A stretch of DNA of 64,000 nucleotides. It comes from an uncultured Verrucomicrobiae bacterium. GTDB lineage: Bacteria; Verrucomicrobiota; Verrucomicrobiia; Chthoniobacterales; UBA10450. Position numbers and translations under genes: made by a program. Where the stretch lies: the NCBI GenBank assembly GCA_963726745.1, contig CAVSDR010000003.1, positions 64,001 through 128,000 on the forward strand. Reading direction: 5' to 3'. Shown here one piece after another: positions 681 through 63,614 of the stretch (position 1 is the first letter of the stretch; each line of letters opens with the position of its first letter). The notes below the pieces were generated by a model. The model was given only the letters and a program-made list of their open reading frames with translations, ran no database searches and had not been told where the DNA came from.

Positions 681-905
681 GGTCGCAAGGCTAACGACAA
701 GACCGAGCGCGAGGAAGGCCAAATCCGGGGACGGCCACGCGCCGCGGCGGGGGCGAGATCGCGCGCGGTGCAGAACTCCGAGGCGCGGCCGTGGCCGGTT
801 TAATCCTGTAAAATCCTTTTCATCCTGTCCTTCCCTTCTCAGCGGGAGTCGCGCGCCGTGCATCCGTGGGCGAAGGTCCTGGCGATGCTGCCACCGGGCG
901 AAGTG

Positions 906-3467
906 ATGCCTAAAGCGCTCTATGCGCGCTTGCATCCGCGCTTGCGGAAGTGGTTCCGCGCGACTTTCCCCAGCTTTAGTCACGCGCAATTGCTCGCAGT
1001 GCCGGCGGTGCTTGACCGCGAATCGATCTTGCTGACTTCGCCGACCGGCAGCGGTAAAACGTTTGCCGGCTTTCTCGGCGTCTTCGATTTCCTTCTGCGC
1101 GAGCTCGACGCGGGGACGCTCCGCCGGGCGGTGCAATGCATCTACGTCTCGCCGTTGCGCGCGCTCACTTACGACATCGGGAAGAATCTGCGCGCGCCGA
1201 TCGAGGGCATGGGCCTGGAGAAGGAGATCATCCTGCACGCGCGCAGCGGCGACACCAAGCCGGCCGAGCGCGCGAAGTTTCGCCGGAGCGGCGCGCACCT
1301 GCTCGTGACCACGCCGGAGAGCCTGGCGGTGATGCTCGCGCAGGAAGGCTACGCGGCGCACTTCGCGGAGTGCCGCTTTGTGATCGTGGATGAGCTGCAC
1401 TCCTTTGCCGGGAACAAGCGCGGCGCCGACCTGACCCTGTCGCTCGAGCGGGTGCAACGCCTAACGAAACATGAGCTTTGCCGCATCGGCCTTTCGGCCA
1501 CGGCCGCGCCCCTCGAGTTGCTGGCTAAATTTCTCGTCGGCACTGATCGGCCCTGCCGGATCGCGGAGGCGAAAGTGGAGAAGCAATCGATCGTGGAAGT
1601 CTTCTCGCCCATCCGGCGCAATCCCTACCCGCCGGCGGGCTACACCGGCCAGCGGCTTTATGCCGAGCTCGCGGAGCTGATCCGCTCGCGGCGTTCGGTG
1701 ATTGTCTTCACGAACGTGCGCTCGGCCGCGGAGCAGCTCGGGCTGCGGCTGCGCGAGCTGCTCCCGGAATTTGCCGACCAGATCGAGACGCACCACGCGT
1801 CGCTGGACCGGAGTGTGCGCCTGGAAGTGGAAGACCGCTTGAAGGAAGGGGAGCTGCGCGCGGTTGTCTGCTCCACTTCGCTCGAGCTCGGGATCGACAT
1901 CGGCGCGGTCGATCTCGTGGTGATGGTGGCGACGCCGAAAGGTGTCTCGCGCGCGATCCAGCGGATTGGCCGCTCCGGGCATTCCTTGAACAAGAGCAGC
2001 CACGGCATCCTCGTGGCCACGAACATCAACGACTTGGTGGAAGCGACCGTGACCGCGCGGCGGGTGCGTGAGCGGGCGCTCGACCCGATCCGCATCCAGG
2101 AGCGGCCGGTCGATGTGGTCGCGCAGCACATCGTGGGGCTGGCGAGCTTGTCGCCTATTTCGGTGGAGGAAGTTTTTTCTCTCGTTAGGCGGGCATTTCC
2201 CTTCGCGGAAATGGAGCGCGCGGAGTTCGACGCGATCGTGCACTACCTCGAAGGCGGCGGCGTTTCCCTGGAGAAACAATACGCCGGGCTCTTCGGCAAA
2301 ATCCTCGTCGAGGATGGGGTGATCTCGCTGGCGCATCCACGGGTCGCGCGGGAGTTCCTGGTCAACATCGGGACGATCGTCTCGGAGAGTTTTGTCGACG
2401 TGATCCTGCGGCGCCGGCGGCTCGGCTCGGTCGAGGAAAACTTCATCAAGCAACTGCAGCCGGGCGATCTCTTCGTGCTCGGCGGACGGATCGTTAGGCT
2501 GATCGAGACGGAACTGAACGCGGCCTACGTGGAGCGGGCCGATGGCCACCTCCCGACGGTCCCGCGCTGGAACGCAGCGAAGATGCCCCTAACGAGTGGT
2601 CTGGCGGAAGGCGTGCGCAATTTGCGGCTGGAATTAGCCAACGAGCTGGCGGCGCACGAGCCGGCGGCGGTCTCGGATTGGCTGGTGGAGAACTACCAAA
2701 TCTCGACCGCCAATGCGCTGGCTATTTTGGAATTGTTTCGCGCGCAGCTGAGCATCTCGGAGCTCCCGGTAGGCGACAAGATGTTGCTCGAGGTCTATCG
2801 CGAGGGCGATTTCTCGCATTACTTTTTCCACGCGCTCATCGGCCGAAGCGCGAACGACGCGCTCTCCCGGATCGTCGCCTGGCGGGTGAAAAATCGCATC
2901 GGCGGAAACGCGCTGGTGACGATCGATGATTACGGATTTCTCCTGACGCTGCGGCCGTTCCAGGAACTGCCGCTGGAGGATTGGCGGCTCTGCTTTGAGC
3001 GCGAAGGTGCGGAGGAGGATTTGTATGCGGCGCTGCGCGGCTCGGAACTGGTGAAGTGGCAATTCCGCGGGGTGGCGCAAACGGGTCTCATGGTCCCGCG
3101 CAATTTGCCGGGAAAAGAACGCCGTCCAAAGCAGCTCACCTGGAGCAGCGAGGTGCTCTTCCGCGTGCTGGAGCAACATGAGCCGGATCACCCGTTGCTG
3201 CACGAAGCCTACCGCCAGGCGATGCACACTTTCCTCGATGCCGAGGAAGCGTTCGCCTACCTCGACCGGGTGCAGCGTTATCACTGGCGCATGCTCGAGC
3301 TGCCGGTGGTCTCGCCTTTTGGCTTCGGAATCTACGCGAGCAAGATCAAGGAAAGCATGATGCTGGAGGACCCGGGCGCGGCGATCGAGCGGATCTACGC
3401 GGACATGTATGCTCGGGTGGAGGCCGCCGCCGCGGCCCAGGCAGCGCAGGAGCCGGCGAGCACCTAG
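906..3467 (+). CDS. lhr: ATP-dependent SF2 helicase, Lhr-core type
   Basis: SPTGSGKT Walker A, SPLRAL, TTPESL, DELH, GLSAT, HHASL, STSLELGIDIG, QRIGRSGH. About 850 aa; ATG 906 preferred over GTG 858. Confidence 0.9.
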   Translation: MPKALYARLHPRLRKWFRATFPSFSHAQLLAVPAVLDRESILLTSPTGSGKTFAGFLGVFDFLLRELDAGTLRRAVQCIYVSPLRALTYDIGKNLRAPIEGMGLEKEIILHARSGDTKPAERAKFRRSGAHLLVTTPESLAVMLAQEGYAAHFAECRFVIVDELHSFAGNKRGADLTLSLERVQRLTKHELCRIGLSATAAPLELLAKFLVGTDRPCRIAEAKVEKQSIVEVFSPIRRNPYPPAGYTGQRLYAELAELIRSRRSVIVFTNVRSAAEQLGLRLRELLPEFADQIETHHASLDRSVRLEVEDRLKEGELRAVVCSTSLELGIDIGAVDLVVMVATPKGVSRAIQRIGRSGHSLNKSSHGILVATNINDLVEATVTARRVRERALDPIRIQERPVDVVAQHIVGLASLSPISVEEVFSLVRRAFPFAEMERAEFDAIVHYLEGGGVSLEKQYAGLFGKILVEDGVISLAHPRVAREFLVNIGTIVSESFVDVILRRRRLGSVEENFIKQLQPGDLFVLGGRIVRLIETELNAAYVERADGHLPTVPRWNAAKMPLTSGLAEGVRNLRLELANELAAHEPAAVSDWLVENYQISTANALAILELFRAQLSISELPVGDKMLLEVYREGDFSHYFFHALIGRSANDALSRIVAWRVKNRIGGNALVTIDDYGFLLTLRPFQELPLEDWRLCFEREGAEEDLYAALRGSELVKWQFRGVAQTGLMVPRNLPGKERRPKQLTWSSEVLFRVLEQHEPDHPLLHEAYRQAMHTFLDAEEAFAYLDRVQRYHWRMLELPVVSPFGFGIYASKIKESMMLEDPGAAIERIYADMYARVEAAAAAQAAQEPAST

Positions 3468-3476
3468 GGCAAACAA

Positions 3477-3506
3477 GAAGGGGCAGGTCTTGCGACCCAC
3501 CCCTTC
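3477..3506. terminator. Imperfect hairpin between convergent lhr and pilC
   Basis: GAAGGGGcaGGTC-ttgc-GACCcaCCCCTTC inverted repeat 10 nt after the lhr stop; no clear U-tract. Confidence 0.5.
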
Positions 3507-6342: not shown

Positions 6343-6776
6343 CCGGCCGCCTGGTCGAGCATGGCAATCCGCCGCGCGTGCCGCCCGCCCTCGAACTCCG
6401 TCGTTAACCAGACGCGCACCAACGCCAGCGCGGTCGCCTCCGGAATGACCCGTTCGCCTAACGAGAGCACGTTCGCGTCGTTGTGCTGCCGTGAGAGCCG
6501 CGCGACCTCTTCGGTCCAACAAAGCGCGCAGCGCACCCCGCGGACTTTATTCGCGGTCATGGCCTCGCCGTTTCCGGATCCGCCGAAAACGATCGCCCGC
6601 TCGCACTCGCCCTGCGCGACCGCTTCCGCCGCCGGCCGGACGAAGAGTGGATAGTCGACCGCCTCTTCGCTGAAGCAGCCGAAGTCCTGCACCTCGTGCC
6701 CGAGCTCCTCGAGCAGCGTCTTGACCTTCTCCTTCAGCCGATAGCCGGCGTGATCCGTCCCGAGCGCGATTTTCAT
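6339..6776 (-). CDS. rpiB: Ribose-5-phosphate isomerase B
   Basis: MKIALGTDHAG, VDYP, GGSGNGE, ANKVRGVRCAL, RQHNDANVL, FEGGRHARRI. Confidence 0.95.
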   Translation of the reverse strand: MKIALGTDHAGYRLKEKVKTLLEELGHEVQDFGCFSEEAVDYPLFVRPAAEAVAQGECERAIVFGGSGNGEAMTANKVRGVRCALCWTEEVARLSRQHNDANVLSLGERVIPEATALALVRVWLTTEFEGGRHARRIAMLDQAAG

Positions 6777-6786
6777 GGGACGATTC

Positions 6787-8081: not shown

Positions 8082-8762
8082 ACGCGCTCGAGGAGCACGT
8101 GGCCGCGTTGCGGCAATGCCGGCGCTGCCCGCGAATGATTCCGCCGCCTGTCTCCGGCGGAGCGGTAGTCAGCCAGATCATGCTCGTGGGCCAGGCGCCC
8201 GGGGTGCGCGAGCCGGTGCTCGGGCGGCCCTTCGCGCACACCGCCGGGCGGACGCTTTTCCGCTGGTTCGAGGAGTTCTGCGGTAGCGAAGAAGCAGTCG
8301 TTAGGCAGCGAGTTTACTTTGCCGCGGTCTGCCGCTGTTTCCCGGGGAAAGCGCCCGGCGGGAGCGATCGCGTGCCCAGCCCGGAGGAAATCCGCAATTG
8401 CTCCGGCTGGATGCAGGCGGAGTTCGAGCTGCTCCGGCCGCGCTTGGTCATCGCGGTGGGAAAACTCGCGATCGCGCAGTTCCTCCCGGTGGCGAAGCTC
8501 GACCAGATCATTGGCCGGCAGTTTGCGCGTAGAGCGCTTCGACCTCATCCCGCTGCCGCATCCCAGCGGCGCTTCGCCCTGGCACAAGATCTCTCCTGGC
8601 CGTGAGCTTTTGGCCAAGGCCATGCGACTGATCGCCCGGCACCCGGCGTGGAGAGACGAATTTCAAATGGAGGAAGCCAGAGACAGGAGATTCCTGATCT
8701 TTCTGGTTTTCCCGTTTCCAAATCCATTCTCTCTTTCCGCATGCCTGAGAAACTCCGCGTGA
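8078..8762 (+). CDS. Uracil-DNA glycosylase superfamily protein (frameshift at about 8523)
   Basis: CRRC, LVGQAPG, RCFPGK..DRVP..EIRNC in one frame and [13 protein letters not shown] in the next; extra T in the ttt run at 8522-8524; true 3' end uncertain. Confidence 0.82.
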
Positions 8763-9520
8763 CCGTCTGGGGCGAAAACGTCCACGAGCGCAAGAATCCG
8801 GTGGTGCGCGAGATCTATCCCGAGGGCATGCACACCACGATCGCGGCCGCGATTGCAGAGGATGCCGGCTGCGACGTCGGCACGGCCACGCTGGAGCAGC
8901 CGGAGCATGGCCTAACGAAAGCTGTCCTCGAAGAAACTGACGTCCTGCTCTGGTGGGGCCACGCGGCCCACGGCGAAGTAGCCGACGAGATCGTGGAGCG
9001 GGTGCTCGAGCGCGTCTGGCAGGGAATGGGTTTTATCGCGCTCCATTCCGCGCACTATTCGAAACCGTTCAAGCGCCTGCTGGGCACGACGTGCTCGCTC
9101 ACCTGGCGCGAGGCAGGCGAGAAGGAGCGGCTCTGGGTTTGCCAGCCGGGCCATCCGATCGCGCGCGGGATCGAGCGCTACTTCGAGATTCCCAACGCCG
9201 AGATGTATGGCGAACCGTTCGCCATCCCTGCACCCGACGAGACGGTTTTCATCTCCTGGTTCGAGGGCGGCGAAGTCTTCCGCTCCGGCTGCACCTGGAA
9301 GCGCGGCAACGGAAAGATCTTTTACTTCCGGCCGGGCCACGAAGTTTACCCGATCTATCACCAGCCGATTGTCCGGCAGGTCTTGCGTAACGCCGTGCGC
9401 TGGGCCGCGCCGGAAGGCGAGCGTTGGATCGATCGCTGCCCGCGAATCGACGACCCGCCCGAACCCTTGACCGTCAAAGGCCCGCGGCTGCACCAGGTAG
9501 GCGAAGAAGGATTCCGATGA
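8741..9520 (+). CDS. thuA: ThuA-like trehalose utilisation protein
   Basis: [59 protein letters not shown]. Confidence 0.9.
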
Positions 9521-10308: not shown

Positions 10309-11069
10309 TAGACCAACTGCACCCCGCAGTAGCCCACGAGCGCGAGTGTCTCCTCCCGCGGCGCGCGGACTTCGTGGCCTAACGAGGCGATCCAGGTGGC
10401 GTGCGCGCCCAGGGCGTGCCGCAACCCGAAATTAGCCGTCAAGATGTCGCGCGAGAAATTCGTCCGCGCGCTTCCGTGCAGCTCGGCCATGACGGAAGTC
10501 GTCTTGCTGGCCTCAATGCCGGCGACGATTCCGTAAAGCCATTCACTCCGCCCGACACTGCCGGCGAGCGGACCGAATTCGCAATCGAGCCCGAACGGGC
10601 CCAGCTTCCGCGCCAGCTGCAGCGGGATCTGGAAGCGCGTCCCATCCTCGGCCAAGCCGCGCCGGACCGAGGAAGTTCGGAGATTGAAGATGACCCGCGG
10701 AAACATCGACAGGTCGAAGCCGCTGCGCTCCTCATCGAGGAAACGCCATTTAACGGCTGCTTCCGTCCCGCCCAATCCGCCGAGCCAGCCGTGGCCACTG
10801 CGCTTCCGCAAGGCCAGCGGCGTTTGCAGGGTGAGCTGGAGGTTCTTCCCCAGCCCGTAGTTTAGATCGACCGCCGGGGCGTCGAGCAACCACTCGTTAG
10901 GCCGATGCTCCCCGGCGATCGCGAGATTGATTTCCCAGCGCCGATCGCCCGGCGTGCCGGGGTCGTCGGTAATCATCGGCGGACCGCCCTGCCCGCGCAG
11001 GCTCCCGAGCGCGAGCCCGCCCACGAGCAGGGCCAGCGCCGCCTTACTTTTTCTCGTGCCGCTCCGCAC
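10305..11069 (-). CDS. Putative outer-membrane beta-barrel protein
   Basis: Signal peptide, GGPPMITDDPGTPG motif, alternating beta pattern, terminal aromatic (QLVY). Confidence 0.6.
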   Translation of the reverse strand: MRSGTRKSKAALALLVGGLALGSLRGQGGPPMITDDPGTPGDRRWEINLAIAGEHRPNEWLLDAPAVDLNYGLGKNLQLTLQTPLALRKRSGHGWLGGLGGTEAAVKWRFLDEERSGFDLSMFPRVIFNLRTSSVRRGLAEDGTRFQIPLQLARKLGPFGLDCEFGPLAGSVGRSEWLYGIVAGIEASKTTSVMAELHGSARTNFSRDILTANFGLRHALGAHATWIASLGHEVRAPREETLALVGYCGVQLVY

Positions 11070-11433: not shown

Positions 11434-12462
11434 TCAACTTTGGTGCGGGCCGTAGACCAGCAGCTTCATCGAGCCTGGCACCATCGCGGGCCGGCCCGGC
11501 GTGGCGCCGGGTGCAGGTGAAGTAGCTGGCTGATACTCCGCCGCCGGCAGGTAAATCCGGTGCGTCGCCGGATCAAGCGCGATGGTGCGCGCGCTTCGCT
11601 GGGTCGCGAGCGACTGGACCACCTTCAACTCGTTAGGCGAGGTTTCCTGCGCGATCGTGACCACGCCCTCGCCGCAGGAGGCGAAGGCAAGTTGCATCTC
11701 CTGGTCAAAGGCGCAGCCATCCACGCCCCGCGCGATCGGCACCGTGGCCACCACCTTGCCCGACGCCGTATCAAGCATGGTCATCATCTGGTTGTGACAG
11801 GTGGAAAAGAGCCGGTGATTCGTGGCGTCGAAGGCGATCCCGGTGGGCTCTTCGCCCGGAGCCAGCGGCCAGCGCGCGACCACCGCATGCGTCGCGGTGT
11901 CGATCACGGCGACCTCGCTCTTGTCCTCGAGATTAACGTAGACGCGGCCGGTCGACGCATCATAGGCGGCAAACTCCGGGCTGCCCTCGAGTGCGACTGT
12001 AGCGACCACTTTCGGATCTTTCGCGTCGATCACGGTCGCGGAGTTTCCGGAGTGGTTGAAGACGTAGACTTCGCCCCGCTGGTCGTCGTAAGCCATCGCG
12101 TCTGGGTTCTCCCCGGTCGCGAATTGCGCGATCGGTTTGAGCGTTTTCAAGTCGATCACGCTGCACTTGTTTTCCTTCCCGTTGGAAGTGAAGCCACGCT
12201 GCAGCTCCGGCACCGGGAGCAATTGATGCACTCCAGGTAGATTTTCGATCTCGCCCGCAACGGCGTTCTTCTCCAGATCGATCACGACCACCTTGGTCGC
12301 GTGCGAAAGGTAAAGGCAATGCGCCGCGGAATCGACGCTGAGGATATCCCACCCGCCTTCGCCGCCGATCGGGATTTGCGTGATCGCCTGGTAAGGTGCG
12401 TCGCTGGCCGCGGAAGCGGAGGAAAGCAGCGCCGCGCCGAGGAGGAGAGAGAGGATTCGCAT
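11434..12462 (-). CDS. YncE/YVTN-type beta-propeller secreted protein
   Basis: Signal peptide MRILSLLLGAA; IGGEGGWD, TGENPDAM, GEEPTGIAFD, ARTIALD repeats. Confidence 0.85.
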   Translation of the reverse strand: MRILSLLLGAALLSSASAASDAPYQAITQIPIGGEGGWDILSVDSAAHCLYLSHATKVVVIDLEKNAVAGEIENLPGVHQLLPVPELQRGFTSNGKENKCSVIDLKTLKPIAQFATGENPDAMAYDDQRGEVYVFNHSGNSATVIDAKDPKVVATVALEGSPEFAAYDASTGRVYVNLEDKSEVAVIDTATHAVVARWPLAPGEEPTGIAFDATNHRLFSTCHNQMMTMLDTASGKVVATVPIARGVDGCAFDQEMQLAFASCGEGVVTIAQETSPNELKVVQSLATQRSARTIALDPATHRIYLPAAEYQPATSPAPGATPGRPAMVPGSMKLLVYGPHQS

Positions 12463-16276: not shown

Positions 16277-16384
16277 AATATGTTGGTCTAACGAAGATTC
16301 GGAGCGCGCTGCGCCGGTGATCGTATGAATTTTTCGGAAAGGCCAACGGTTGCGGGCGCGAGGCGCGCGCGCTAGCGGAAAGGG

Positions 16385-17852: not shown

Positions 17853-18085
17853 AAATCCTCTTCTTCTCGCACCTGCGCGACGCCGTGGGCACGGGTGAAA
17901 TCGAGCACGCCCCGCGCGGGACGACCGTTGCCGATTTACTCGACGAGCTTTACGCGCAATACCCGAAGCTGCGCGCGTGGGACGCGAGCCTGCTCATCGG
18001 CGCCGGGGTGGAATTCGTCGGCCGCGACTACATCCTGCTGCCTAACGAAGAGATCGCACTCATGCCGCCGGTGCAGGGCGGCTAG
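17849..18085 (+). CDS. moaD: MoaD/ThiS sulfur-carrier protein
   Basis: MKILFFSHLRDAVG..TVADLL..EIALMPPVQGG with C-terminal GG. Confidence 0.85.
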   Translation: MKILFFSHLRDAVGTGEIEHAPRGTTVADLLDELYAQYPKLRAWDASLLIGAGVEFVGRDYILLPNEEIALMPPVQGG

Positions 18086-21139: not shown

Positions 21140-21253
21140 AGAAGGGCCGAAGGCCGCACAAGGTGCGTCCCCCAGCCCCTGCTGTCGAGCGCTTGCCGTG
21201 CCACGGGCAAGGGCGCGCGGCGCCAAGCGACACCGCGGCCCCGCCGGGGGGTG

Positions 21254-26318: not shown

Positions 26319-26346
26319 CGATTGCTGATTTTCGATTGTCGATTGT
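26319..26346. repeat. Degenerate 7-bp tandem repeat in the divergent yajQ/TPR intergenic gap
   Basis: cgattgc tgatttt cgattgt cgattgt. Confidence 0.5.
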
Positions 26347-33122: not shown

Positions 33123-33157
33123 CGGCGCGACATCTTGCCGGCTATTTCTTCGTCTCG

Positions 33158-33898: not shown

Positions 33899-33919
33899 GG
33901 GGTTGGGTTCGTTAGGCAG

Positions 33920-51403: not shown

Positions 51404-51555
51404 ATTGCGAAAACGCTTCTCCCGGCCGCCTCAGCCGTTTCCGGCCAGGTCATTCCGAACGGGAGCCGCTCCTCAGGCAATGCGCTCCCCGGGTGCGCTT
51501 TGTCCAGCTCGATTCCGCGCGCAGAGGCGCGGTTTTTTTGCTACATCAAAGAGAG

Positions 51556-52155
51556 ATGCCGCGCCCGCTCCTGCTCTTCGCTCCCGGCGCCGGCGCCCCC
51601 TCCTCGCATCCGTGGATGGAGCACTGGGCGGAATTGCTCGCGCGTCTCGGCCCGGTCCGGCGTTTCGATTACGACTACCTGCGCGCGGGCTCGCGCCGCC
51701 CGGATCGTCCGCCGCAGCTCCTGGCGGCGCATCGCGCTGCCCTCGCCGAAGCGCGCGCCGGGCACGACGGCCCAGTGGTGCTCGCCGGCAAAAGCATGGG
51801 CGGCCGCATCGGCTGCCACCTCGCGCTCGAGGAAACAGTCAGCGCGCTCATCTGCTTCGGCTATCCGCTTTGCGGCGGTGGTGATCCCGCGAAGCTGCGC
51901 GACCAGGTCCTGCGCGACCTGCGCACGCCGGTGCTTTTCCTCCAGGGCACACGCGACCCGCTCTGCCCGCTCGCGCTGCTCGCGGAAGTGCGGGCGCAAA
52001 TGACCGCGCCTAACGAACTCCACGAGGTCGAGGGCGGCGATCATTCCCTCCTCGTGCGGAAGCGCGACCTGGCCGCGCGCGCGGAGACGCAAGCCACGGT
52101 CGACGCGCGTATCCTCCAGGCGATCGAGCAATTCCTCGCCCGCCACCTCGCATGA
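51556..52155 (+). CDS. Alpha/beta hydrolase (KANL3/Tex30-like)
   Basis: GAGA, GKSMGGR nucleophile elbow, GYPL, QGTRD, GGDHS. Confidence 0.88.
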   Translation: MPRPLLLFAPGAGAPSSHPWMEHWAELLARLGPVRRFDYDYLRAGSRRPDRPPQLLAAHRAALAEARAGHDGPVVLAGKSMGGRIGCHLALEETVSALICFGYPLCGGGDPAKLRDQVLRDLRTPVLFLQGTRDPLCPLALLAEVRAQMTAPNELHEVEGGDHSLLVRKRDLAARAETQATVDARILQAIEQFLARHLA

Positions 52156-54743
52156 AGAAGCAGCTGGTTAAAGTCGACGGGCACGAATTCCAAGTCTCGA
52201 ATCTCGACAAGGTTTTCTTCCCTGGCAGCGGCTTCACCAAGGGCGAGACGCTCGCCTTCTACACGGAAATAGCCGACACCATCCTGCCGCACCTGCGCGA
52301 CCGGCCGCTGACGATGAAACGTTTCCCGGAGGGCGTCGCGGGCGAACCGTTCTACGAGAAGAACGCGCCCAAGCACACGCCCGCGTGGGTCACGACCTTC
52401 GCGGTGCCGCGGAGCGAAGGCGGCGACGACATCAACTACATCCTCTGCAACGACCGGGCCACGCTTACCTGGGTGACGAACCTGGGCGACATCGAGAAGC
52501 ACGTCCTGCTCGCAAAAGTGCCGCAGACCAATGTCCCCACCTCGATGGTCTTCGACCTCGACCCGGGCGCGCCGGCGGGGATGCTCGCATGCGCCGAGGT
52601 CGCGTTGCATTTGCGGACGCTTTTCGCGGCCTGGGGGCTCGAAGCCTTTGCAAAAGTTTCCGGCTCAAAAGGCATCCACTTGAGCGTGCCGCTGAACGGC
52701 GACGCGCCCTACGAAGTGACGCAGCCTTTCGCCAAGACGGTCGCGGAATTGGTCGCGCACCAACTGCCCAAAGGTGTCGTCTCCGACATGGCCAAGAGCC
52801 TGCGCACCGGGAAAGTGTTGATCGATTGGAGCCAAAATTCCGACTTCAAGACCACCGTGGCGGTCTATGCCATGCGGGCCAAGGGCGACGAGCCGTTCAT
52901 CTCCATGCCGGTCGAGTGGGCCGAACTCGAACGCGCGGTGAAAAAGCAAGACGCCAGCAAACTCACCTTCACCCCTAACGAGTCGATCAAGCGCATCGCC
53001 AAACTTGGCGACCTCTTCGCCCCGGTGCTGAAGCTGCAGCAGGAATTACCCAGCGCTTTCACCAAGGCCCTGGCCGCTGGGCCCGCGCCCAAACTCAGCC
53101 GCTGGCCGCGCAACGACAAGAAAGGCCGCCGCAGTTCCCGGGTCGCCGAAAAACCGCCGAAAGGCGATCACAGCCTGCAAACCTATGCGGCCAAGCGCGA
53201 CCACTCGCGCACTCCGGAACCGGCCGCGAAGCCAGCGGCAAAGAAAGGGAAGCGCACCGGCCCGCATCGTTTCGTCATTCAGAAACATCAAGCCAGCCAT
53301 CTGCATTACGATTGGCGGCTCGAGATGGAGGGCGTGCTCCGCTCCTGGGCCGTGCCGAAAGGGCCGCCCTTTGAATTAAAGGAAACGCGCCTGGCGATGC
53401 ACGTGGAAGATCATCCGTTGGAATATGAGCACTTCGAGGGAACGATCCCGCCGGGAAACTACGGCGCGGGCACCGTCATGGTTTGGGATTATGGCGTCTA
53501 CGAAGACCTGACCGAGAATGCCGCGGCCGCTTTTCACGCGGGCAAAATGCACCTGGTGATGCAAGGCGAGAAGCTCCAAGGCGAATGGATCCTGGTGAAG
53601 GACAAGCGCGAGCCGGAAAGCAATCGCTGGCTCCTGATCAAAGCCGGGAAGGCGATGAAAGCGCTGTCTAAAAAGGCGGACGACCAATCGGCTCTCACTG
53701 GGCGCTCGATGGCGGAGATTGCGAAAGAGAACGACGCCCAGTGGCACAGCAACCGCCCGGCAGCCTCGGCGAAAACGATCGCGCCGAAACGCGCCAAAGT
53801 GCCGGCTAAATTCTTCGAGCCGATGAAGTGCAAGGCGGTGACGCAACTGCCGGAGGAAGGGAACTGGACCTACGAAGTAAAGTTCGACGGCTACCGCTGC
53901 CAGGCGGTGAAGAATGGCGCCAAAGTCCAGCTCCTCTCGCGGAACAAAAAAAGCCTCAACGCTCGTTTTCCGAACGTGGTCGAGGCGCTGAAAAAGCTGC
54001 CTAACGACTGCACGCTCGATGGCGAAATCGTGGCGCTCGATGAGCAGGGCAAGCCCTCCTTCCAGCTCCTGCAGAACAACCTCTCCCGCCCGCTCGCGGT
54101 CTACTTCTACGCCTTCGACTTGTTGAGTATCGACGGCCGGGAGCTGGTCGATGCCCCGATCGAGGAGCGCCGGGCAGAGCTCGATCAGCTTCCGCTGCAG
54201 GAACCGCTCCGCCGCTCGGCCTTGCTCGACGCGCCGGCCGATCAAGTGCTCGACGCGGTGCGCTCGTTAGGCCTCGAGGGTGTGGTCGGGAAACGAGACG
54301 GCTCGACCTACGAGGCCGGGGAACGCTCGGGCGCGTGGATCAAGCAGCGGACCGGCGCGGAGCAGGAGTTCGTCATTGGCGGTTACACGCCAGGGACGCG
54401 CGGCTTCGACGCGCTTCTCGTAGGCGTTTATGAAAAGCGGAAACTGCAGTTCGTCGCCCGGGTGAAGGATGGCTTCGTCCCGCGGCTGCGCGAGGAAATC
54501 TTCGCGAAGTTCAAAGGCCTGGAAACGGACGAATGTCCCTTCACGAATCTCCCGGAGAAGAAAGGCGCGCGCCGCGGCGAGGCTCTCACCGCCGAGAAGA
54601 TGAAGGAGTGTCGCTGGCTCAAGCCAAAGCTGATCATGCGCGTGGCCTTCGTGAATTGGACCGATGCCGGCAATCTCCGGCACCCGACTTACGTCGCCCT
54701 CGTGACCGACAAGAAGCCCGCCGCCGTGGTCCGCGAGACCTAG
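52152..54743 (+). CDS. ligD: NHEJ DNA ligase D (POL-PE-LIG order)
   Basis: POL: SNLDKVFFP, FDLDPG, SGSKGIH; PE: FVIQKH.ASHLHYDWRLE, SWAVPKGP; LIG: EVKFDGYR, EGVVGK, LRHP. Confidence 0.95.
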   Translation: MKKQLVKVDGHEFQVSNLDKVFFPGSGFTKGETLAFYTEIADTILPHLRDRPLTMKRFPEGVAGEPFYEKNAPKHTPAWVTTFAVPRSEGGDDINYILCNDRATLTWVTNLGDIEKHVLLAKVPQTNVPTSMVFDLDPGAPAGMLACAEVALHLRTLFAAWGLEAFAKVSGSKGIHLSVPLNGDAPYEVTQPFAKTVAELVAHQLPKGVVSDMAKSLRTGKVLIDWSQNSDFKTTVAVYAMRAKGDEPFISMPVEWAELERAVKKQDASKLTFTPNESIKRIAKLGDLFAPVLKLQQELPSAFTKALAAGPAPKLSRWPRNDKKGRRSSRVAEKPPKGDHSLQTYAAKRDHSRTPEPAAKPAAKKGKRTGPHRFVIQKHQASHLHYDWRLEMEGVLRSWAVPKGPPFELKETRLAMHVEDHPLEYEHFEGTIPPGNYGAGTVMVWDYGVYEDLTENAAAAFHAGKMHLVMQGEKLQGEWILVKDKREPESNRWLLIKAGKAMKALSKKADDQSALTGRSMAEIAKENDAQWHSNRPAASAKTIAPKRAKVPAKFFEPMKCKAVTQLPEEGNWTYEVKFDGYRCQAVKNGAKVQLLSRNKKSLNARFPNVVEALKKLPNDCTLDGEIVALDEQGKPSFQLLQNNLSRPLAVYFYAFDLLSIDGRELVDAPIEERRAELDQLPLQEPLRRSALLDAPADQVLDAVRSLGLEGVVGKRDGSTYEAGERSGAWIKQRTGAEQEFVIGGYTPGTRGFDALLVGVYEKRKLQFVARVKDGFVPRLREEIFAKFKGLETDECPFTNLPEKKGARRGEALTAEKMKECRWLKPKLIMRVAFVNWTDAGNLRHPTYVALVTDKKPAAVVRET

Positions 54744-54753: not shown

Positions 54754-56754
54754 CTATTTCAGGAGGTAGTCGCGGATGAACTGCACCGTGGCGTAGAACT
54801 GGAAGTCGGCGTTCTTCTTCTTTTGGAAGCCGTGCCCTTCGTCCTTCCCGACGAGGTACCAAACCGGCGTGTTCTGTTTTTTCAGCGCGGCCACGATCTG
54901 GTCGGCTTCGGATTTCGGGACGCGCGGATCGTTCGCTCCCTGGACTACGAAAAGCGGCTTGGTGATTTTGGCGACATTGTTCAAGGCCGCGATCCGCTCC
55001 ATGAATTTCGCTGTCTCCGGGTCGCGCTCGTCGCCGTATTCCGCGCGGCGCAGATCGCGCCGGTAGCTCTCGGTGTTCTTCAGGAAAGTCGAGAGGCTCG
55101 ACATGCCGACCACGTCGAGCGCGCAGCGGATGCGGTCCGCGTAATTCGTCGCCACCTGCAGGGTCATGAAGCCACCGTAGGAGCCGCCCGTGACCATGAT
55201 CCGGTCGGCTGCGAGCCGCGGCTGCGTGCCGATCCAGTCGAAGAGCGCGGAGATGTCCTTGTAGGAATCCTCACGCTTCACCCCGTTGTCTAATTGCACG
55301 AAAGTCTTCCCGTAGCCGGCCGAACCGCGCACGTTCGGAAACAGGAGCGCGACGCCGAGCTCGTTCAGCAGGTAGTTGTTCCGCCCGATAAAACCGGGGC
55401 GATACTGCGATTCCGGACCGCCGTGGATGTTCACGATCACGGGACGTTTGCCAGGAAATTTCTTCTCGTCCGGCAGATAGAGGAAGCCGCTGATTTCGCG
55501 GCCATCGAAGGATTTCCACTGGACCAGCTCCGGCTGGACGAAACGGGCCGCGGGAATGCCGCCGGTCTCGCTCATCGTCCAGCGGGTGGTCGTGACCTTG
55601 CGGTCGGCCACGGCTAACGAGTAGATGTCCGAGGGCGACTTCGCGCCCGCGACATTAAAGGCGAGCAGCGGCTGCCGATGCTGCCAATGCAAGCCTGAGA
55701 TGACCACCGGGCCGAGCGGCGGGTTGAATTCCGGATCGGGGAGCGGCCGCGCGGTCAGCGACTTTTCCGCCGCGACCACGTCGAGCAGATGGAGCGTGCT
55801 CACGCCGTTTTCATTCAGGGTGTAGGCGATCATCTTGCCGTCTCCGCTCAGGTCCCAATCGTCGACGTCGAACTTCGGATTCGGCAGGAGGTAGCTGTGC
55901 TTCCCGGAGTCGAGATCGAGGTAGGCCAGCCGCTGGAATTCCGATTCGCGATCGGTGGTGACGAAGAGACCGTGGCCGCTTTTCGCAAAGAGCGCTTTCC
56001 CGTAGGCCACCTTCTCCGCGCCTTCCGCCGGCCGCGGGGTGAGCTCCTTGCGGGCGCCGCCCTCGACCGCGAAGAGCCAGAGATAGCTCTCGTTGATCGA
56101 GACATATTCCAGCACCAGAAGCTGCTGGTCATCCGGCGACCAATCGAGCACCTGCCAGCCGCCGCCTTTCACTTCTGCGACCAGTTTGTCGCTCGCCGGA
56201 TTGCGCGGATCCTGCACGTAGATGTCGGTGTCGGCGCCGTTGCGACGGGTCGAGGTGTAGGCGATGCGGTCGCCCTTCGCGCTCCAGGTCGGCTCGCTGT
56301 TGCGGGCTTTGCCGTCGGTCAACAGCGTGACCTCGCCGCTCGCGAAATCGTAACGGTAGTTTTGATTAAACTCGTTCCCGCCGGCGCTCTTGGTGAGGAT
56401 AAAGAATTCGCCCTTCGCTGGATCGGCGGTGGCATTGGTTACCCGGTCGGGGAAAAACGTCAGCTGGATGCGCGCGCCGCCGGGTTGCCCCACCAGGTGC
56501 ACCTGATTGGTATCGGCAAAGCGCGTCAAGACGAGCATCTCCGGGCGGAGCGGATTCCAATCCGCAAACGTGGCCGCGCGCGACTCGGTGTAGCGGCCGA
56601 CGTTTTCCGCGATCTCCGCGGGCAGCGGCGGCACGCCATCAACCAGCAAACTCTCCGGCGCGGGAATCGTCTTCTCCGGTTCCGGCCCGGCGGCGCGCAG
56701 TGGAAGGTTAAGGCAAAGCGTGAGCGCGAGGGTGGAAAGAAGGCGGCGATTCAT
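54754..56754 (-). CDS. S9 family peptidase (prolyl oligopeptidase/acylaminoacyl peptidase)
   Basis: Signal peptide, beta-propeller, IHGGPE, GGSYGG, QGANDPRVP, DEGHGF. Confidence 0.93.
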   Translation of the reverse strand: MNRRLLSTLALTLCLNLPLRAAGPEPEKTIPAPESLLVDGVPPLPAEIAENVGRYTESRAATFADWNPLRPEMLVLTRFADTNQVHLVGQPGGARIQLTFFPDRVTNATADPAKGEFFILTKSAGGNEFNQNYRYDFASGEVTLLTDGKARNSEPTWSAKGDRIAYTSTRRNGADTDIYVQDPRNPASDKLVAEVKGGGWQVLDWSPDDQQLLVLEYVSINESYLWLFAVEGGARKELTPRPAEGAEKVAYGKALFAKSGHGLFVTTDRESEFQRLAYLDLDSGKHSYLLPNPKFDVDDWDLSGDGKMIAYTLNENGVSTLHLLDVVAAEKSLTARPLPDPEFNPPLGPVVISGLHWQHRQPLLAFNVAGAKSPSDIYSLAVADRKVTTTRWTMSETGGIPAARFVQPELVQWKSFDGREISGFLYLPDEKKFPGKRPVIVNIHGGPESQYRPGFIGRNNYLLNELGVALLFPNVRGSAGYGKTFVQLDNGVKREDSYKDISALFDWIGTQPRLAADRIMVTGGSYGGFMTLQVATNYADRIRCALDVVGMSSLSTFLKNTESYRRDLRRAEYGDERDPETAKFMERIAALNNVAKITKPLFVVQGANDPRVPKSEADQIVAALKKQNTPVWYLVGKDEGHGFQKKKNADFQFYATVQFIRDYLLK

Positions 56755-56793
56755 GGCAATGAATTCATTGCCAGCGATCCGCTGCGGGCGCAA

Positions 56794-57585
56794 TCAGCGC
56801 AGGTAGTCGTTGGCCTCCACCAGCGCGTAGCCTGGCGTGTTCTCGACGAAATGCCGCAGCCAGAAAAGATGACCCGCTCCGTAGACCACGAGCACGCGAT
56901 CCCCCGGCTGCGCCACGTGCGTGAGGCGCGCGAAGATCTTCGCATTGCGCTCATACCAACCGGTGTTGAGCGCCGCGCCGGGCTCGTCCTTTCCGTCCCC
57001 CAGCGGGAGGACGGCATAGTAAAATTGTGTGTGCTCCGCGCGCAGTCGCGCCGGTTCGTTCAGCCGCGCGAGTTGGAGTCGCAGGGGCAGGTTCTTCTGC
57101 GCGGCCTCGGCCTCGGCGATGTTCCTTTCGACGTCGTCGCTGAGCCGCGCGAGCAGCGCCTCCTGCCCGTGCGCCTGGGCGAATTCCTGCACGGGGCCGT
57201 AGGGAAAATTGCCATCGAGATCAATTCCGTGGATTGCCTGCAGCCGGAGCTTTTGCGCGAGGCGAAAGGCGATCTGCACCCGCTCATCCGGATTCTGCGC
57301 AAGCGCCTCACTCGTTAGGCTGGAGTACTTGGCGGAGACAAATTTCGGCGCCTCGGCCCGCGCCTCGACCATGATCTTGGTCGGCCGGAATTTTGCCAGC
57401 CGATCGGCCAAGTCTTCCAGCTCGGCCTGCTTCTCGGGCACGAGCACGTTGTCGACTTTCATGTTGTGCCGGTCGAGGCCCGGATTCGCGAGGTGGAAGG
57501 TCCCCAGCACCATCACCTCCACCGGATCGGTGGCGAAGGTGGTGCTGACGGCCAACGAAAGCGTGAGCGCGGCGAGAAGTTTCAT
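56794..57585 (-). CDS. DUF5694-like secreted protein
   Basis: Signal peptide; VMVLGTFHLANPG, FRPTKI.VE, E.VQIAFRLA, WYERN.KIF, VYGAGH. Confidence 0.72.
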   Translation of the reverse strand: MKLLAALTLSLAVSTTFATDPVEVMVLGTFHLANPGLDRHNMKVDNVLVPEKQAELEDLADRLAKFRPTKIMVEARAEAPKFVSAKYSSLTSEALAQNPDERVQIAFRLAQKLRLQAIHGIDLDGNFPYGPVQEFAQAHGQEALLARLSDDVERNIAEAEAAQKNLPLRLQLARLNEPARLRAEHTQFYYAVLPLGDGKDEPGAALNTGWYERNAKIFARLTHVAQPGDRVLVVYGAGHLFWLRHFVENTPGYALVEANDYLR

Positions 57586-57641
57586 CGCTCGTTGGGATGC
57601 GGCCGGCCGGCGCGCCGGATTCAAAAAAAACGCCGGCGCCG

Positions 57642-59463
57642 CTAGGGCGTGACGCTGTCGCCGGAATGATTCCGCACCAGGAGGGTGTCCGCGCCATTAA
57701 CCGTGCCGTCGAGGTTCACATCGAACGCGAAGTTGCCGGCGCCGGCGCTTTCGCCGGAATGGTTGCGCGTTTGCAGCGCATCGCCGCCGTTCACCTGGCC
57801 GTCGCGGCTCGTGTCGCCCAAAAGCACGCTCACCGATGCCGCCACGGTGGGGCTTTCATTGCCTATCGTGTCGGCCACGTTGCTTAAGGTCACATTGACG
57901 GTGCGCGCGTTCGGCACGTTTGCCAGCGAGACGACATACTGGTGCGCATCGGCGCCGATCGCCTGCTGCGAAATCGTGCCGACAGAAGCGCTCGCGCTGC
58001 CGACGCGCGCCAGCGGTTGCGCGAAGGTGAAGACAAGTTGCAAGGCCCCGCCACGCGGTTCCACCCCGGGCAGTGCGAGGTCGAAGTTCCCCGCCGCGCC
58101 GTGCGTTTTCCGCGAAACCACACTTTGCAAAACCACCGGCGGAATAATCGACGACGGCCCGAGGACATTCCAATGCAGCGGCAAAGTCTGGCGCATGTGC
58201 TCATCCGCCGTGCTCCAATGGTGCCCGCCCGCGAGGACTGCGGTGATGCCGTTGGTCACGCCTTTCTCGGAAAGTTTGCCGACGAGATGGTCGCCACGGA
58301 AATAATTCGAATCGAGCGGCTCGCCCGTGAGCGGGCCGTATTGGATGAACCAGGCGATGCTCTGCATCTGCGCCGCGGTGCTGTTGCAGACGAGATTTGG
58401 GCCGTTGTTGAGCGCGGCATACGCGGCGTCGCGCGGTTTCCCGAAAACCGGATCGAACATCGCGTTGCCGAACGTGGTGTCGCGAATGGTGTCGACGTTG
58501 GCGCAGGTCAGGTCGGCGTAGAAATGCGTCCCGTCGAAGGCGCCGACGGTGCGGAAAAGATCCGGCCGCTTGGCCCCGATCTTTCACGCTCATGAAGCCG
58601 CCTAACGAGAAGCCATCCACCCCGCGGCCGGCGCGGTTCGCGACCGTGCGGAAGTTTGCGTCCACGTAGGGAATGACTTCCGAGAGGAGATAATCCTCGA
58701 AGCGCCCGGTGCCGATGCCGGAGGAGCTGGTTAACTCCGGCGACTTGAAGTTGGTCACCATCCCGGAAACGGAGTTGTCCGCGCTCGAACTGCCGGGCGA
58801 GACCAGGATCATCGGCCCGACCTGGCCAGCGGCGAGAAGCGCTTCGTAGACGTCGATCACGTTCTTGCCGCCGCGGGTGTCATCCTGCCGCTTGTTGATC
58901 CACTCGCTCTCGTGCCCGCGGAAAAGATAGAGCACCGGATAGCGCCGCCCGGCCGCGAGCGCGTAGCCCGGCGGCGTGTAGACGTAGAATTCCTTGGCCA
59001 CCCCGAGCACCTGGCTCTGGAGTTGCACCTTCTGCACGCGGGTGTCGTAAATCGGAACGCAGCGATCGGCCCAGGACTCGACCGTGACGAAGATGGTCTG
59101 GTCGGCCGTGGCCGTGGCGGTGCGATTCGCGATATCCACGCAGTCCGCCGTGCGCTCGACCCGCGCCCAACTTCCGCGAGTGATCTTGAATTCGAGCGCG
59201 GCGCCTTCGGTCGAGGAAATGGTGATCCGCGCATGCGTGGCGCTGTCGCGCGTCATCGGGGTCGCGCCCGGGTCCCAGTTTTGGAAGTTGCCGGCTAAAT
59301 AGACGGCATCCTCTGCGGGCGTGTCCGCCGGCAGGGTGACGTCGAAGGTGACGTTCACGGGCACGACTTGCGCGCGGAGCGTGAGCACCGCGAAGCCGAG
59401 CATGAGCAGAAGTGAGAGAGTGGCGAGGAGGAGGATGCGCGGGAAGCTAGCGGGTCGGGTCAT
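57642..59463 (-). CDS. Secreted CBM20-esterase-dockerin-like protein; +1 frameshift at about 58583
   Basis: VYLAGNFQNWDP (CBM20), YTPPGY..YPVLYL, GFSLGG. Removing one A joins ORF 58201-59547 to ORF 57642-58460, which ends SVVSRKTHG..LLGDTSRDGQVNGGD..DVNLDGTVNGAD. Confidence 0.8.
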
Positions 59464-62054: not shown

Positions 62055-62095
62055 TTCTCGACTTCGCGCGCGGCAACAGATGAGGGTGAAAACAC

Positions 62096-63508
62096 ATGGC
62101 GGTTAAGACAGAAAAAGAACTGAGCGAAGCGCAGCGGAGCCATTGGCTGAAGGCGGTGGCCGCGGTGGAAATGCGGAATTTTGGCTACGCCATCTCGCTT
62201 CTGCAGGGAATCCTGAAACACGAGCCGGAATTCCTCACCGGCCGGCAGCTCCTCCGGCGCACCGAAGTGACGAAGCTGCGCGCGGAAAAGAAGAGCTTCT
62301 TCAGCATGTCGACCTCCTCGATCGGGGTGATGAAGGCGAAGAACGAGCTGAAGAAAGATCCGCGCAAGGCGATGGAATTGATCGAGAAAGTGCTCGAGGA
62401 CGAGCCTTACAATCGGCCGGCTAATTTACTCCTGAAAGAAGCGGCGGTCGCCGCCGGTATGCCGGAGATCGGTGTGCTCGCGATGCAGACTTTGCTCGAG
62501 GAAAAGCCGAAGGACACCAAGCTGCTGCACGAGCTCGGCCGGCTGTATCACCAGCTTGAGCAGAGCGACAAGGAAGTCGAAATCTACAACCGCATCACCG
62601 AGGTCGACCCGCTCGACTCCGAAGCGCTGCGGCTCGGGAAGGATGCCTCCGCCCGTGCCTCGATGAAGAGCGGCGGCTGGACCGAAGCCGAGAGCTATCG
62701 CGATTTAATCAAGGACAAGGAGACGGCGGTTTCGCTGGAGCAGCAAAACCGCATGGTCCTGACCGGCGAGTCGCTCGACCAGCAAATCGCCGAGACCTAC
62801 GAGCGCCATCAGGCGGAGCCGGAGAGCGTCGATCACGCGCGCAAGCTGGCGATGCTCAGCGAGCAGAAGGAAGACTACGAAAGCGCGATCGCCTGGTATC
62901 AATACGCGGCCGACCTGACCGGCGGCGCGGACAGCGCGCTCGTGCGCAAGGTTTCCGATCTCGGGTTCAAGCGCGCCGAGCGCGAGATTGCCGAGAACGA
63001 ACGCTGGCTCGCGGAACATGGCCCGGACGACGAAGGCTACGCCGAGCGCGCGGCGGCCCTGGACGCGGCCCGCCGGGCGCGCGCCGAAAGCTCAATCGAG
63101 GAAGCGCGGAAGCGTTCCGAAAGAAATCCGACCGATCTTCAGCTGCGCTTTGAGCTGGGCGAGCATTTGCTCGATGCCGGGCATTATCGCGAGGCGCTCC
63201 CAGAGCTGCAGCGCGCCCGGCAGCACCCAAACGCCCGGCTGCGAGCGATGAACCTGTTAGGCCGCTGTTACCAGCAACTCGGGATGCTCGACCTGGCGGT
63301 GAAGCAATTGGAGGAAGCCTCGCGCGAAATCTTGGTGATGGACGCGCAGAAGAAGGAGATCGTTTATAACCTCGGCCTGGTCTACGAGGAAATGGGGGAA
63401 GCGGAGAAGTCGATCGCGGCGATGAAGGAAATCTACGAGGTCGATTACGGCTACAAGGACGTGGCGACGCGGGTGGAAAGCTCCTACCAGAGCAGCCCGC
63501 AAAGCTAA
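62096..63508 (+). CDS. TPR-repeat protein
   Basis: Helical repeats, NPTDLQLRFELG, YNLGLVYE.MG, YEVDYGYKDV. Confidence 0.8.
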   Translation: MAVKTEKELSEAQRSHWLKAVAAVEMRNFGYAISLLQGILKHEPEFLTGRQLLRRTEVTKLRAEKKSFFSMSTSSIGVMKAKNELKKDPRKAMELIEKVLEDEPYNRPANLLLKEAAVAAGMPEIGVLAMQTLLEEKPKDTKLLHELGRLYHQLEQSDKEVEIYNRITEVDPLDSEALRLGKDASARASMKSGGWTEAESYRDLIKDKETAVSLEQQNRMVLTGESLDQQIAETYERHQAEPESVDHARKLAMLSEQKEDYESAIAWYQYAADLTGGADSALVRKVSDLGFKRAEREIAENERWLAEHGPDDEGYAERAAALDAARRARAESSIEEARKRSERNPTDLQLRFELGEHLLDAGHYREALPELQRARQHPNARLRAMNLLGRCYQQLGMLDLAVKQLEEASREILVMDAQKKEIVYNLGLVYEEMGEAEKSIAAMKEIYEVDYGYKDVATRVESSYQSSPQS

Positions 63509-63614
63509 CGACCGCTGCAGACCTTGGAAATGGGCACGTCCAAGAGAGCGGTGCCTAGCGAAATGAAAGTGCCGGCAATCCGGCAAACCAACCAACCATT
63601 CAGTTAGCAACCTT

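Follow-up and report, generated by a model that had tools for sequence, protein, structure and literature searches.

The window considered here, that is, the whole stretch of DNA that was analysed (64,000 nucleotides), corresponds to bases 64001-128000 of contig C3 in the assembly of an uncultured bacterium of the order Chthoniobacterales, phylum Verrucomicrobiota (3.41 Mb in 7 contigs, 63.7% G+C, 94.7% complete; hereafter G000). Several of its unrelated housekeeping genes, namely those of an Lhr-like helicase, rpiB, pepF, threonine synthase, an NtrC-type regulator, and ligD, carry copies of a non-palindromic nine-letter word, GCCTAACGA (reverse complement TCGTTAGGC). An exact count gives 24 copies in the window, 12 on each strand, while 100 dinucleotide-preserving shuffles yielded 0.20 on average and never more than 2. 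The seven-letter core, CTAACGA, is found 38 times (20 forward and 18 reverse; shuffle mean 3.17, maximum 8). The original prediction, made by reading the letters of the window, had listed these 24 positions and proposed a dispersed DNA-uptake or genome signal; all of them proved exact, and the core recount gave the same figures. The evidence presented below suggests that GCCTAACGA may be a DNA-uptake-sequence-like word of its lineage, kept by biased uptake and recombination, a reading for which confidence and doubt are evenly balanced.

Over the whole genome, the word occurs 1312 times (681 forward and 631 reverse). All 7 contigs carry it, at 0.32-0.53 copies per kb, and the enrichment is therefore not confined to one contig. 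The commonest 10-mer of the genome is GCCTAACGAG, with 820 copies. Base composition predicts 24 copies of GCCTAACGA, Markov models of orders 1-2 predict 16, and a model of order 3 predicts 19.7; from order 4 upward, the models increasingly absorb the word itself (84 copies expected at order 4, then 702 and 1213 at orders 5-6). In coding DNA, 925 copies were counted against a mean of 14.4 (range 7-24) in 20 synonymous-codon shuffles of the called genes, which amounts to a 64-fold excess. With such differences from the order-3 and codon-shuffle figures, the enrichment thus survives both null models that had been named beforehand in the original prediction. Genes were called with our own rough caller, in which long open reading frames (ORFs) are scored by a codon model (2581 genes, 83% coding).

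The information of the sites is confined to the nine letters, and the flanks are only weakly biased, with a preference for G (62%) then T (43%) immediately downstream (+1/+2), and for A or T (70%) four bases beyond (+5). At six of the seven core positions (CTAAC-A), single-letter variants amount to 0-28 copies, at or below the composition-matched background. At the seventh, the change of G to A in the CpG gives the commonest core variant (93 copies); changes are also tolerated at the two leading letters and at the tenth letter. The same sharp 9-mer logo was obtained for G093, a genome of another genus, from 614 copies in a 400-kb sample, the tenth letter being mostly A. With 1.36 copies per kb, G093 is the most word-rich of the genomes, and there the one-letter variant GCCTGACGA shows a 9-fold enrichment of its own; with G as its tenth letter, this variant has only 2 copies in G000.

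Regarding placement, 921 copies lie inside genes, 258 between genes, and 133 across a gene end, and the genic share (about 70%) is spread over unrelated genes. Genes carry 0.33 copies per kb and the spaces between them 0.43-0.55; density is flat along gene length, and convergent spacers are not strongly preferred. All four stop-free frames are used: TCG TTA GGC (418 copies), xGC CTA ACG Axx (218), xxG CCT AAC GAx (201), and xTC GTT AGG Cxx (84). These frames call for rare codons, TTA and CTA representing 2.9% and 1.5% of leucine codons, and AGG 1.8% of arginine codons. For example, Ser-Leu-Gly is spelled TCG-TTA-GGC in 419 of 727 tripeptides, and the encoded tripeptides are themselves in excess (1.58 times the expectation for SLG and 2.40 times for PNE, against 0.88 times for the reversed control GLS). 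A comparable effect on the proteome, through the encoded tripeptides, is described for the uptake signal sequence (USS) of Pasteurellaceae and the DNA uptake sequence (DUS) of Neisseriaceae by Findlay and Redfield (PMC2817400). The use of four reading frames and of rare codons, together with the 64-fold excess over the codon-shuffle null, supports the earlier claim that the constraint acts on DNA, not on protein. The rare-codon readings made in the window also held (CTA ACG and GTT AGG in the helicase gene, TCG TTA GGC in rpiB). The 90-aa gene that had been named moaD had no NCBIfam match at 1e-10.

In each orientation, one frame of the word contains a stop triplet, TAA on one strand and TAG on the other. 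These triplets end 152 of the 2581 called genes, where about 1 would be expected from random placement according to our own arithmetic. Existing stop codons read as a tolerant place that already offers three rare letters of the word. Two of the stop-codon overlaps previously noticed in the window, at 46464 and 63505, were confirmed; the third, at 33155, does provide the stop of one ORF, yet our caller puts the site inside another, overlapping ORF. Stop usage as a whole is near even for a genome of 64% G+C (TAG 907, TGA 863, and TAA 810, with this crude caller).

Neighbour distances are near exponential overall, with a deficit of short distances and an excess of long gaps. Distances below 50 bp are found at 0.16-0.37 of expectation, those below 200 bp at 0.16-0.58, and those of 400-1600 bp at 1.2-1.36. 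Given the shortage of short distances, the copies are therefore spread more evenly than by chance. At the other end of the distribution, 15 gaps exceed 10 kb (5 expected) and 4 exceed 15 kb (0.25 expected). The longest word-free gaps are low-GC polysaccharide gene clusters, one on C7 (58% GC, with glycosyltransferases, DegT aminotransferases, a Wzy-like protein, and an ABC transporter), and one on C3 (with WecG-type transferases and an exosortase). Density climbs 6.6-fold, from 0.088 to 0.583 per kb, between the 5-kb segments of lowest and highest GC, although the word itself has a lower GC content than the genome does. Strain-variable or recently acquired DNA, with foreignness judged from composition and gene content, thus appears to carry few copies. 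For DUS, Treangen et al. (PMC2397512) report that recently acquired genes are devoid of them, and that they are conserved within permissive regions.

The origin and upkeep of the copies can be followed in relatives of G000. A 2.5-kb segment of the helicase gene was aligned for 17 species of the genus, with 70-80% nucleotide identity. One site is shared by 11 of the 17 species, yet is missing from G000, and the site at 1461 is found in 4. The sites that G000 alone possesses were made by several synonymous changes to rare codons: GTG CGG in relatives became GTT AGG, and what is mostly CTS ACY TCN became CTA ACG AGT. On a larger scale, comparison with G002, a word-poor member of the genus (204 kb aligned), gives an identity of 0.648 under the word and 0.69 in the flanks, with gaps touching 12 of 64 word sites. 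The letters under the word being less conserved than their flanks, the copies were therefore written by substitution, not by insertion. The word-rich relative G043 (73.4% identity, 79 kb aligned) presents the opposite picture: identity reaches 0.865 under the word against 0.72-0.74 in the flanks, and 20 of 30 sites have remained identical, a 6-fold excess over the other 9-mers (11.2%). Against G002, 6 of 61 sites are identical for a background of 12.2%, i.e., without extra conservation. This contrast between the two relatives thus points to a sequence-specific force that operates in certain lineages, and that is weak or has disappeared elsewhere. In public reads, screened for population variation, 6-7% of the sampled words were recovered in three soil runs of one study only, as contigs, and these runs enter no conclusion drawn here.

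The distribution of the word was examined in 121 genomes of the family, from 36 genera, with the reversed word as a control. Its count reaches 1.5 times that of the control or more in 113 genomes; ratios of 3, 10, and 20 are attained or exceeded in 89, 35, and 22 genomes, respectively, and eight genomes stand at background level (G051, G058, G068, G078, G083, G086, G099, and G152). Density ranges from 0.004 to 1.36 per kb, a spread of more than 300-fold in the family, and of 16-fold within one genus. In the genus of G000, the most marked contrast opposes the word-poor G002, G003, and G005 to the word-rich G013, G037, G043, and G044. The forward-strand share is 0.44-0.58 in the 85 family genomes with at least 200 copies. 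A 10-mer form is enriched in all 18 other sampled genomes of the genus (51 to 1404 copies), and in none of the 12 other families of the order (one genome each, 0-14 copies). A separate dialect in the word-poor G002 was considered and rejected: GCCTAACGA is still its top dispersed 9-mer, with 19 copies in 340 kb. Some rows are flagged as unpublished, namely G001, G008, and G034 in the genus tables, G047, G051, and G058 in the family table, and again G001 in the 17-species helicase alignment, and no conclusion depends on these rows alone. The statement that no such motif was known for Verrucomicrobiota agrees with the full-text searches made, in which no describing paper was found: a search for the exact word returned primers and unrelated uses only, one on uptake sequences and Verrucomicrobia returned only unrelated papers, one on uptake signal sequences gave no such word in the phylum, and one on Verrucomicrobia, natural transformation, and comEC returned neither such a word nor a transformation study of the family.

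A second dispersed word, approximately SAWNKYGYYGKCTAAWTY, with GYYGGCTAAW as its core, is present in G000 in about 1421 copies (loose pattern), of which 28 are in the window, against 2.1 expected. Genes contain about 76% of the copies, which occupy several frames and both orientations, and, like GCCTAACGA, this word arises by in-place substitution. Its commonest form, GCTGGCTAA, has 479 copies in G000 and 127 in G015, against 3-36 (below control) in 32 congeners and at most 22 in G093, G068, and G078, and the second word is essentially specific to the species of G000. Together, the two words hold 57% of all genomic CTAA tetranucleotides, and they are placed independently of each other. A promoter role was rejected for the second word, which is mostly in genes and in both orientations, and whose intergenic copies are not aimed at gene starts. 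Likewise, the two words are not halves of one element: their closeness came from 128 places where the loose pattern had caught variants of GCCTAACGA, and there is otherwise no preferred spacing. Genus g5, which belongs to another family of the order, possesses a strand-symmetric word of its own, CTAACATCG, which shares CTAAC with GCCTAACGA. It was seen in G022 (C2:100001-300000) and in whole genomes, with 143-205 copies in four g5 genomes (G022, G162, G175, and G196) against 14-19 for controls, 37-40 copies in two, and counts near control elsewhere. In G024, a genome of another family, only modest words were seen, apparently parts of a longer repeat. The second word and CTAACATCG therefore indicate that word specificity differs by lineage, with the CTAA core kept. 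Both are new in this analysis. The interpretation given in the original prediction is partly supported, in particular for the constraint at the DNA level; it had overlooked the family-wide range, the second word, and the preference for stop codons.

The coordinates of all copies of GCCTAACGA and of its core in the window are listed in Table 1, with examples of the second word and other features mentioned in the text. Among these are perfect arrays of the hexamer GCCAAC (17-39 units), often beside CCGACT arrays of 4-14 units. They are probably low-complexity linkers of surface proteins, since the array of the window sits inside a large protein with choice-of-anchor Q domains.

Table 1. Coordinates of the word, its core, and other features (window positions, unless a contig is named; intergenic according to our own gene calls)
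Feature	Positions	Strand	Location	Codons and remarks
GCCTAACGA	1459..1467	+	Lhr-like helicase gene 858-3467(+)	xGC CTA ACG Axx
GCCTAACGA	2182..2190	-	helicase gene, antisense	GTT AGG; in 5/17 aligned species including G000; G001 one change away
GCCTAACGA	2491..2499	-	helicase gene, antisense	GTT AGG; G000 alone among 17 species
GCCTAACGA	6456..6464	+	rpiB 6339-6812(-)	TCG TTA GGC = Ser-Leu-Gly
GCCTAACGA	8298..8306	-	intergenic	
GCCTAACGA	8910..8918	+	intergenic	
GCCTAACGA	10377..10385	+	gene 10305-11069(-)	TCG TTA GGC
GCCTAACGA	10894..10902	-	gene 10305-11069(-), sense	CCT AAC GAG
GCCTAACGA	11630..11638	-	intergenic	
GCCTAACGA	15977..15985	+	intergenic	
GCCTAACGA	18040..18048	+	90-aa gene 17813-18085(+)	CCT AAC GAA
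GCCTAACGA	20690..20698	+	gene 18800-21226(-)	TCG TTA GGC
GCCTAACGA	27811..27819	-	gene 27737-28567(-)	CTA ACG
GCCTAACGA	33155..33163	-	ORF 33158-33898(-); also within overlapping ORF 31692-33257(-)	TAA = stop of ORF 33158-33898
GCCTAACGA	33909..33917	-	intergenic	
GCCTAACGA	37293..37301	-	NtrC-type regulator gene 37123-38469(-)	CTA ACG AGT
GCCTAACGA	39082..39090	+	threonine synthase gene 38860-39987(-)	TCG TTA GGC
GCCTAACGA	46650..46658	+	intergenic	
GCCTAACGA	51115..51123	-	gene 50345-51403(-)	CTA ACG AGC
GCCTAACGA	52008..52016	+	gene 51493-52155(+)	CCT AAC GAA
GCCTAACGA	53999..54007	+	ligD 52152-54743(+)	CCT AAC GAC
GCCTAACGA	54264..54272	-	ligD, antisense	TCG TTA GGC
GCCTAACGA	57312..57320	-	gene 56794-57624(-)	CTA ACG AGT
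GCCTAACGA	58600..58608	+	intergenic	
CTAACGA only	691..697	+	intergenic	
CTAACGA only	2589..2595	+	helicase gene	CTA ACG AGT; G000 alone among 17 species
CTAACGA only	12937..12943	-	pepF 12541-14340(+)	TCG TTA GCC
CTAACGA only	13525..13531	-	pepF	TCG TTA GCC
CTAACGA only	14168..14174	+	pepF	ACT AAC GAG
CTAACGA only	15195..15201	-	intergenic	
CTAACGA only	16288..16294	+	intergenic	
CTAACGA only	19329..19335	-	gene 18800-21226(-)	
CTAACGA only	27336..27342	-	gene 26336-27730(+)	
CTAACGA only	36354..36360	+	histidine-kinase-like gene 35944-37092(-)	
CTAACGA only	46464..46470	-	gene 44680-46470(+)	TAG = stop codon
CTAACGA only	52975..52981	+	ligD	
CTAACGA only	55614..55620	+	gene 54754-56793(-)	
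CTAACGA only	63505..63511	+	gene 62096-63508(+)	TAA (63506-63508) = stop codon
Second word	1520-1529	+		
Second word	15378-15387	-		
Second word	26995-27004	+		
Second word	53801-53810	+		
GCCAAC array	18903-19070		gene 18800-21226, minus strand	
GCCAAC array	C1:5127-5258			
GCCAAC array	C3:731719-731832			
GCCAAC array	C4:146754-146855			
GCCAAC array	C6:313696-313929			
GCCAAC array	C6:1027519-1027668			
ComEA-like ORF	C2 ~230.1 kb	+	overlaps transglycosylase-like gene on other strand	95 aa
C5-methyltransferase	C5:212447-214066	+	directly downstream of S-adenosylhomocysteine hydrolase gene	540 aa
Split ComEC match	G005, C12:409293-409950		two ORFs	

Since the features observed correspond one by one to the hallmarks published for uptake sequences, biased uptake followed by homologous replacement is taken as the most likely explanation. 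The function put forward in the original prediction, i.e., an uptake or self-recognition signal or a site for an abundant DNA-binding protein, would fit every in-silico hallmark examined. According to this scheme, a component of the uptake machinery of this Chthoniobacterales family would bind double-stranded DNA bearing the word more readily than other DNA. Word-bearing fragments would then gain entry to cells more frequently and, through recombination, take the place of homologous alleles, so that substitutions creating or repairing a copy would spread and those destroying one would be purged, through molecular drive, possibly with selection for conspecific DNA. The word would accumulate by in-place substitution wherever it is tolerated, i.e., in four frames, stop codons, and spacers, while DNA too recent or too strain-specific for exchange would stay without it. 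Regarding machinery, G000 encodes a three-domain ComEC, DprA, three secretins, and several PilT-family ATPases.

Several points nevertheless weigh against biased uptake. The reading is drawn from resemblance to known systems. No full ComEA was recovered from the 94.7% complete G000, TIGR00426 giving no match, and PF12836 giving a 29-bit half-domain in a 95-aa ORF. Uptake genes were tried and rejected as the difference between word-rich and word-poor genomes: all five contrasted genomes carry ComEC, DprA, secretin, and PilT, including the background genomes G068, G078, and G083, and ComEC is present in 33 of the 34 genomes of the genus, the word-poor G002 included. Terminators formed by inverted pairs are wanting, unlike for DUS, as only 25 neighbouring cores lie within 60 bp of each other genome-wide, 10 of them inverted; the earlier remark on their absence in the window thus holds for the genome. 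The second word, unrelated to the first and with its ~1400 copies, is not accounted for by one uptake receptor, and would fit a more general word-writing process equally well. Positional conservation, thin islands, and even spacing would also follow from selection on the binding sites of a protein. Finally, the genic, intergenic, and stop-codon counts all depend on the crude ORF caller. Two observations on the uptake genes may be added. The 95-aa ORF, the sole ComEA-like sequence, contains one helix-hairpin-helix and is possibly a remnant, because it overlaps a gene on the opposite strand and ends in a copy of GCCTAACGA. In the word-poor G005, the ComEC match is split over two ORFs, which corresponds to a pseudogene or to a long-read indel or assembly error.

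It is also conceivable, though on balance unlikely, that GCCTAACGA is bound by a DNA-binding protein that is abundant and specific to the family, for instance a nucleoid organiser or a self-marking factor, its copies being maintained by ordinary per-site selection and without any role in uptake. The 6-fold better conservation of sites in comparison with the word-rich relative, the sharp specificity, the symmetry of the strands, the short-range avoidance, and the thin low-GC islands are all compatible with such sites, and the three CTAA-centred words of the order (GCCTAACGA, CTAACATCG, and GYYGGCTAAW) could reflect diversifying readers. However, a density that spreads over more than 300-fold in the family, and 16-fold in the genus, is difficult to reconcile with an indispensable structural function. 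Sites also turn over fast between species, their mutual avoidance reaches about 200 bp, well beyond the footprint of a protein, and no candidate protein emerged. In particular, a Myb-type reader, prompted by the TAACG core, was rejected, as PF00249 was found in none of five genomes.

A broader proposition, to which we lend little credence, is that Chthoniobacterales carry diversifying word-writing systems, whose readers would share a CTAA-centred specificity and produce the three words cited above. The process would be a sequence-directed conversion or self-marking mechanism of a kind not yet described, not uptake, and a new word of more than 1000 copies could be installed within the life of one species. 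Another reading, which seems improbable, sees the word as a product of intracellular biased repair or gene conversion tied to a sequence-specific enzyme, a link of the type proposed for cyanobacterial HIP1 and methyltransferases, with near-matches corrected toward the word. One-letter variants at most core positions are indeed at or below background, as if converted, and the commonest core variant, G to A at CpG, is the one expected from deamination of a methylated C on the other strand. The species-specific second word would fit a fast turnover of modification specificities, and copies do arise by in-place substitution. Yet known short-patch repair corrects one position, not nine, with mild biases, and GCCTAACGA is not palindromic. 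The methyltransferases tested do not follow the word either: the methyltransferase family PF01555 occurs in word-rich and word-poor genomes alike, and the only C5-methyltransferase of G000, beside ahcY, was rejected as a reader because of its patchy distribution, full-length relatives being restricted to 6 of the 120 other genomes of the family, with none found in the word-rich G043, G037, and G044. The latter enzyme has a C-terminal extension of about 150 aa, no adjoining restriction gene was recognised, and the S-adenosylhomocysteine hydrolase gene upstream is read as two ORFs, owing to a frameshift or an assembly error.

As a non-palindromic 8-10-mer present about once every 2.6 kb, which is comparable to the density of Chi in Escherichia coli, the word could also be a polar signal for recombination or segregation, of the kind of Chi, the FtsK orienting polar sequences (KOPS), or the architecture imparting sequences (AIMS), but this is very improbable. 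On five of six contigs, the cumulative range of orientation stays within permutation (over the six contigs, p = 0.86, 0.57, 0.03, 0.62, 0.21, and 0.47), orientation is independent of the sign of the local GC skew (181:167 against 500:464), and the four contigs of negative mean GC skew carry 551 forward and 504 reverse copies. RecC (PF04257) had no match in G000, and the only PDDEXK_1 match is a 470-aa ORF, so that no AddAB-sized nuclease was found with these queries, AdnAB-type enzymes not being searched. Without polarity, and with neither RecC nor an AddAB-sized protein found, signals of the Chi, KOPS, and AIMS types are therefore rejected; Chi, KOPS, and the palindromic HIP1 had rightly been set aside from the window. 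Remnants of a small mobile element, such as a miniature inverted-repeat transposable element (MITE) or a repetitive extragenic palindrome (REP), or a by-product of a repeated protein motif, have nothing but copy number in their favour and can practically be dismissed, as the flanks are nearly uninformative beyond 4 bases, there is no hairpin partner, about 70% of copies are in unrelated genes and four frames, and orthologous positions align without insertions.

Coming back to uptake, the abstract of a 2025 preprint (bioRxiv 10.1101/2025.10.24.684340) names only two proteobacterial families, Neisseriaceae and Pasteurellaceae, for sequence-specific DNA uptake. If the uptake reading is true, GCCTAACGA would constitute a third, independent case, in a different phylum and in at least 36 genera of abundant, mostly uncultured soil bacteria. 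Self-preferring transformation would then be no quirk of host-associated Proteobacteria, and natural transformation would be indicated as a main route of recombination in soil Verrucomicrobia. Competence has already been argued to be the probable basis of recombination in abundant soil bacteria (PMC7305173). In practice, the word would mark self DNA for metagenome binning and for the detection of horizontal transfer, because islands carry few copies, and constructs bearing it might ease the transformation of these organisms. The 300-fold spread in density and the second word of a single species also offer natural contrasts for finding the reader protein.

Several known systems can be compared with this word. 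Chi and KOPS are, like GCCTAACGA, asymmetric and spaced at the kilobase scale (8-mers); unlike it, they are strongly skewed with respect to replication. The HIP1 element of cyanobacteria (GCGATCGC) is also a hyper-abundant, short, lineage-specific word, written into genes by substitution. Its function is still debated, and a link to cyanobacterial methyltransferases has been proposed. Nevertheless, HIP1 is palindromic and methyltransferase-linked, whereas GCCTAACGA is asymmetric, and the one C5-methyltransferase tested does not track it.

USS consists of a 9-base core with weaker, AT-rich flanking positions. GCCTAACGA resembles it in its 9-base non-palindromic core, thousand-copy abundance, and presence on both strands, as well as in its family-wide occurrence with varying density, weak downstream flank preferences, and lack of need for inverted pairs. 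It differs in its phylum and sequence, in the stop triplets that end genes, in the ComEA that was not found in full in G000, and in the coexistence of a second word in the same genome. Even for USS, the reader protein is not known to have been identified. GCCTAACGA and USS are both mostly genic, with a frame bias and enriched encoded tripeptides (PMC2817400).

DUS has 10-12 bases and exists in dialects; in Neisseriaceae, it is read by the minor pilin ComP. Unlike DUS, GCCTAACGA does not form inverted-repeat terminator pairs, and only 20-30% of its copies are intergenic or across a gene end. Like DUS, it is conserved at the level of the family, and the related word CTAACATCG in a neighbouring family resembles DUS dialects. 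Its sites are conserved amid surroundings of average divergence, and variable islands are poor in sites, as is reported for DUS (PMC2397512). As with DUS, certain newly made sites depart from the homologous sequence by several bases.

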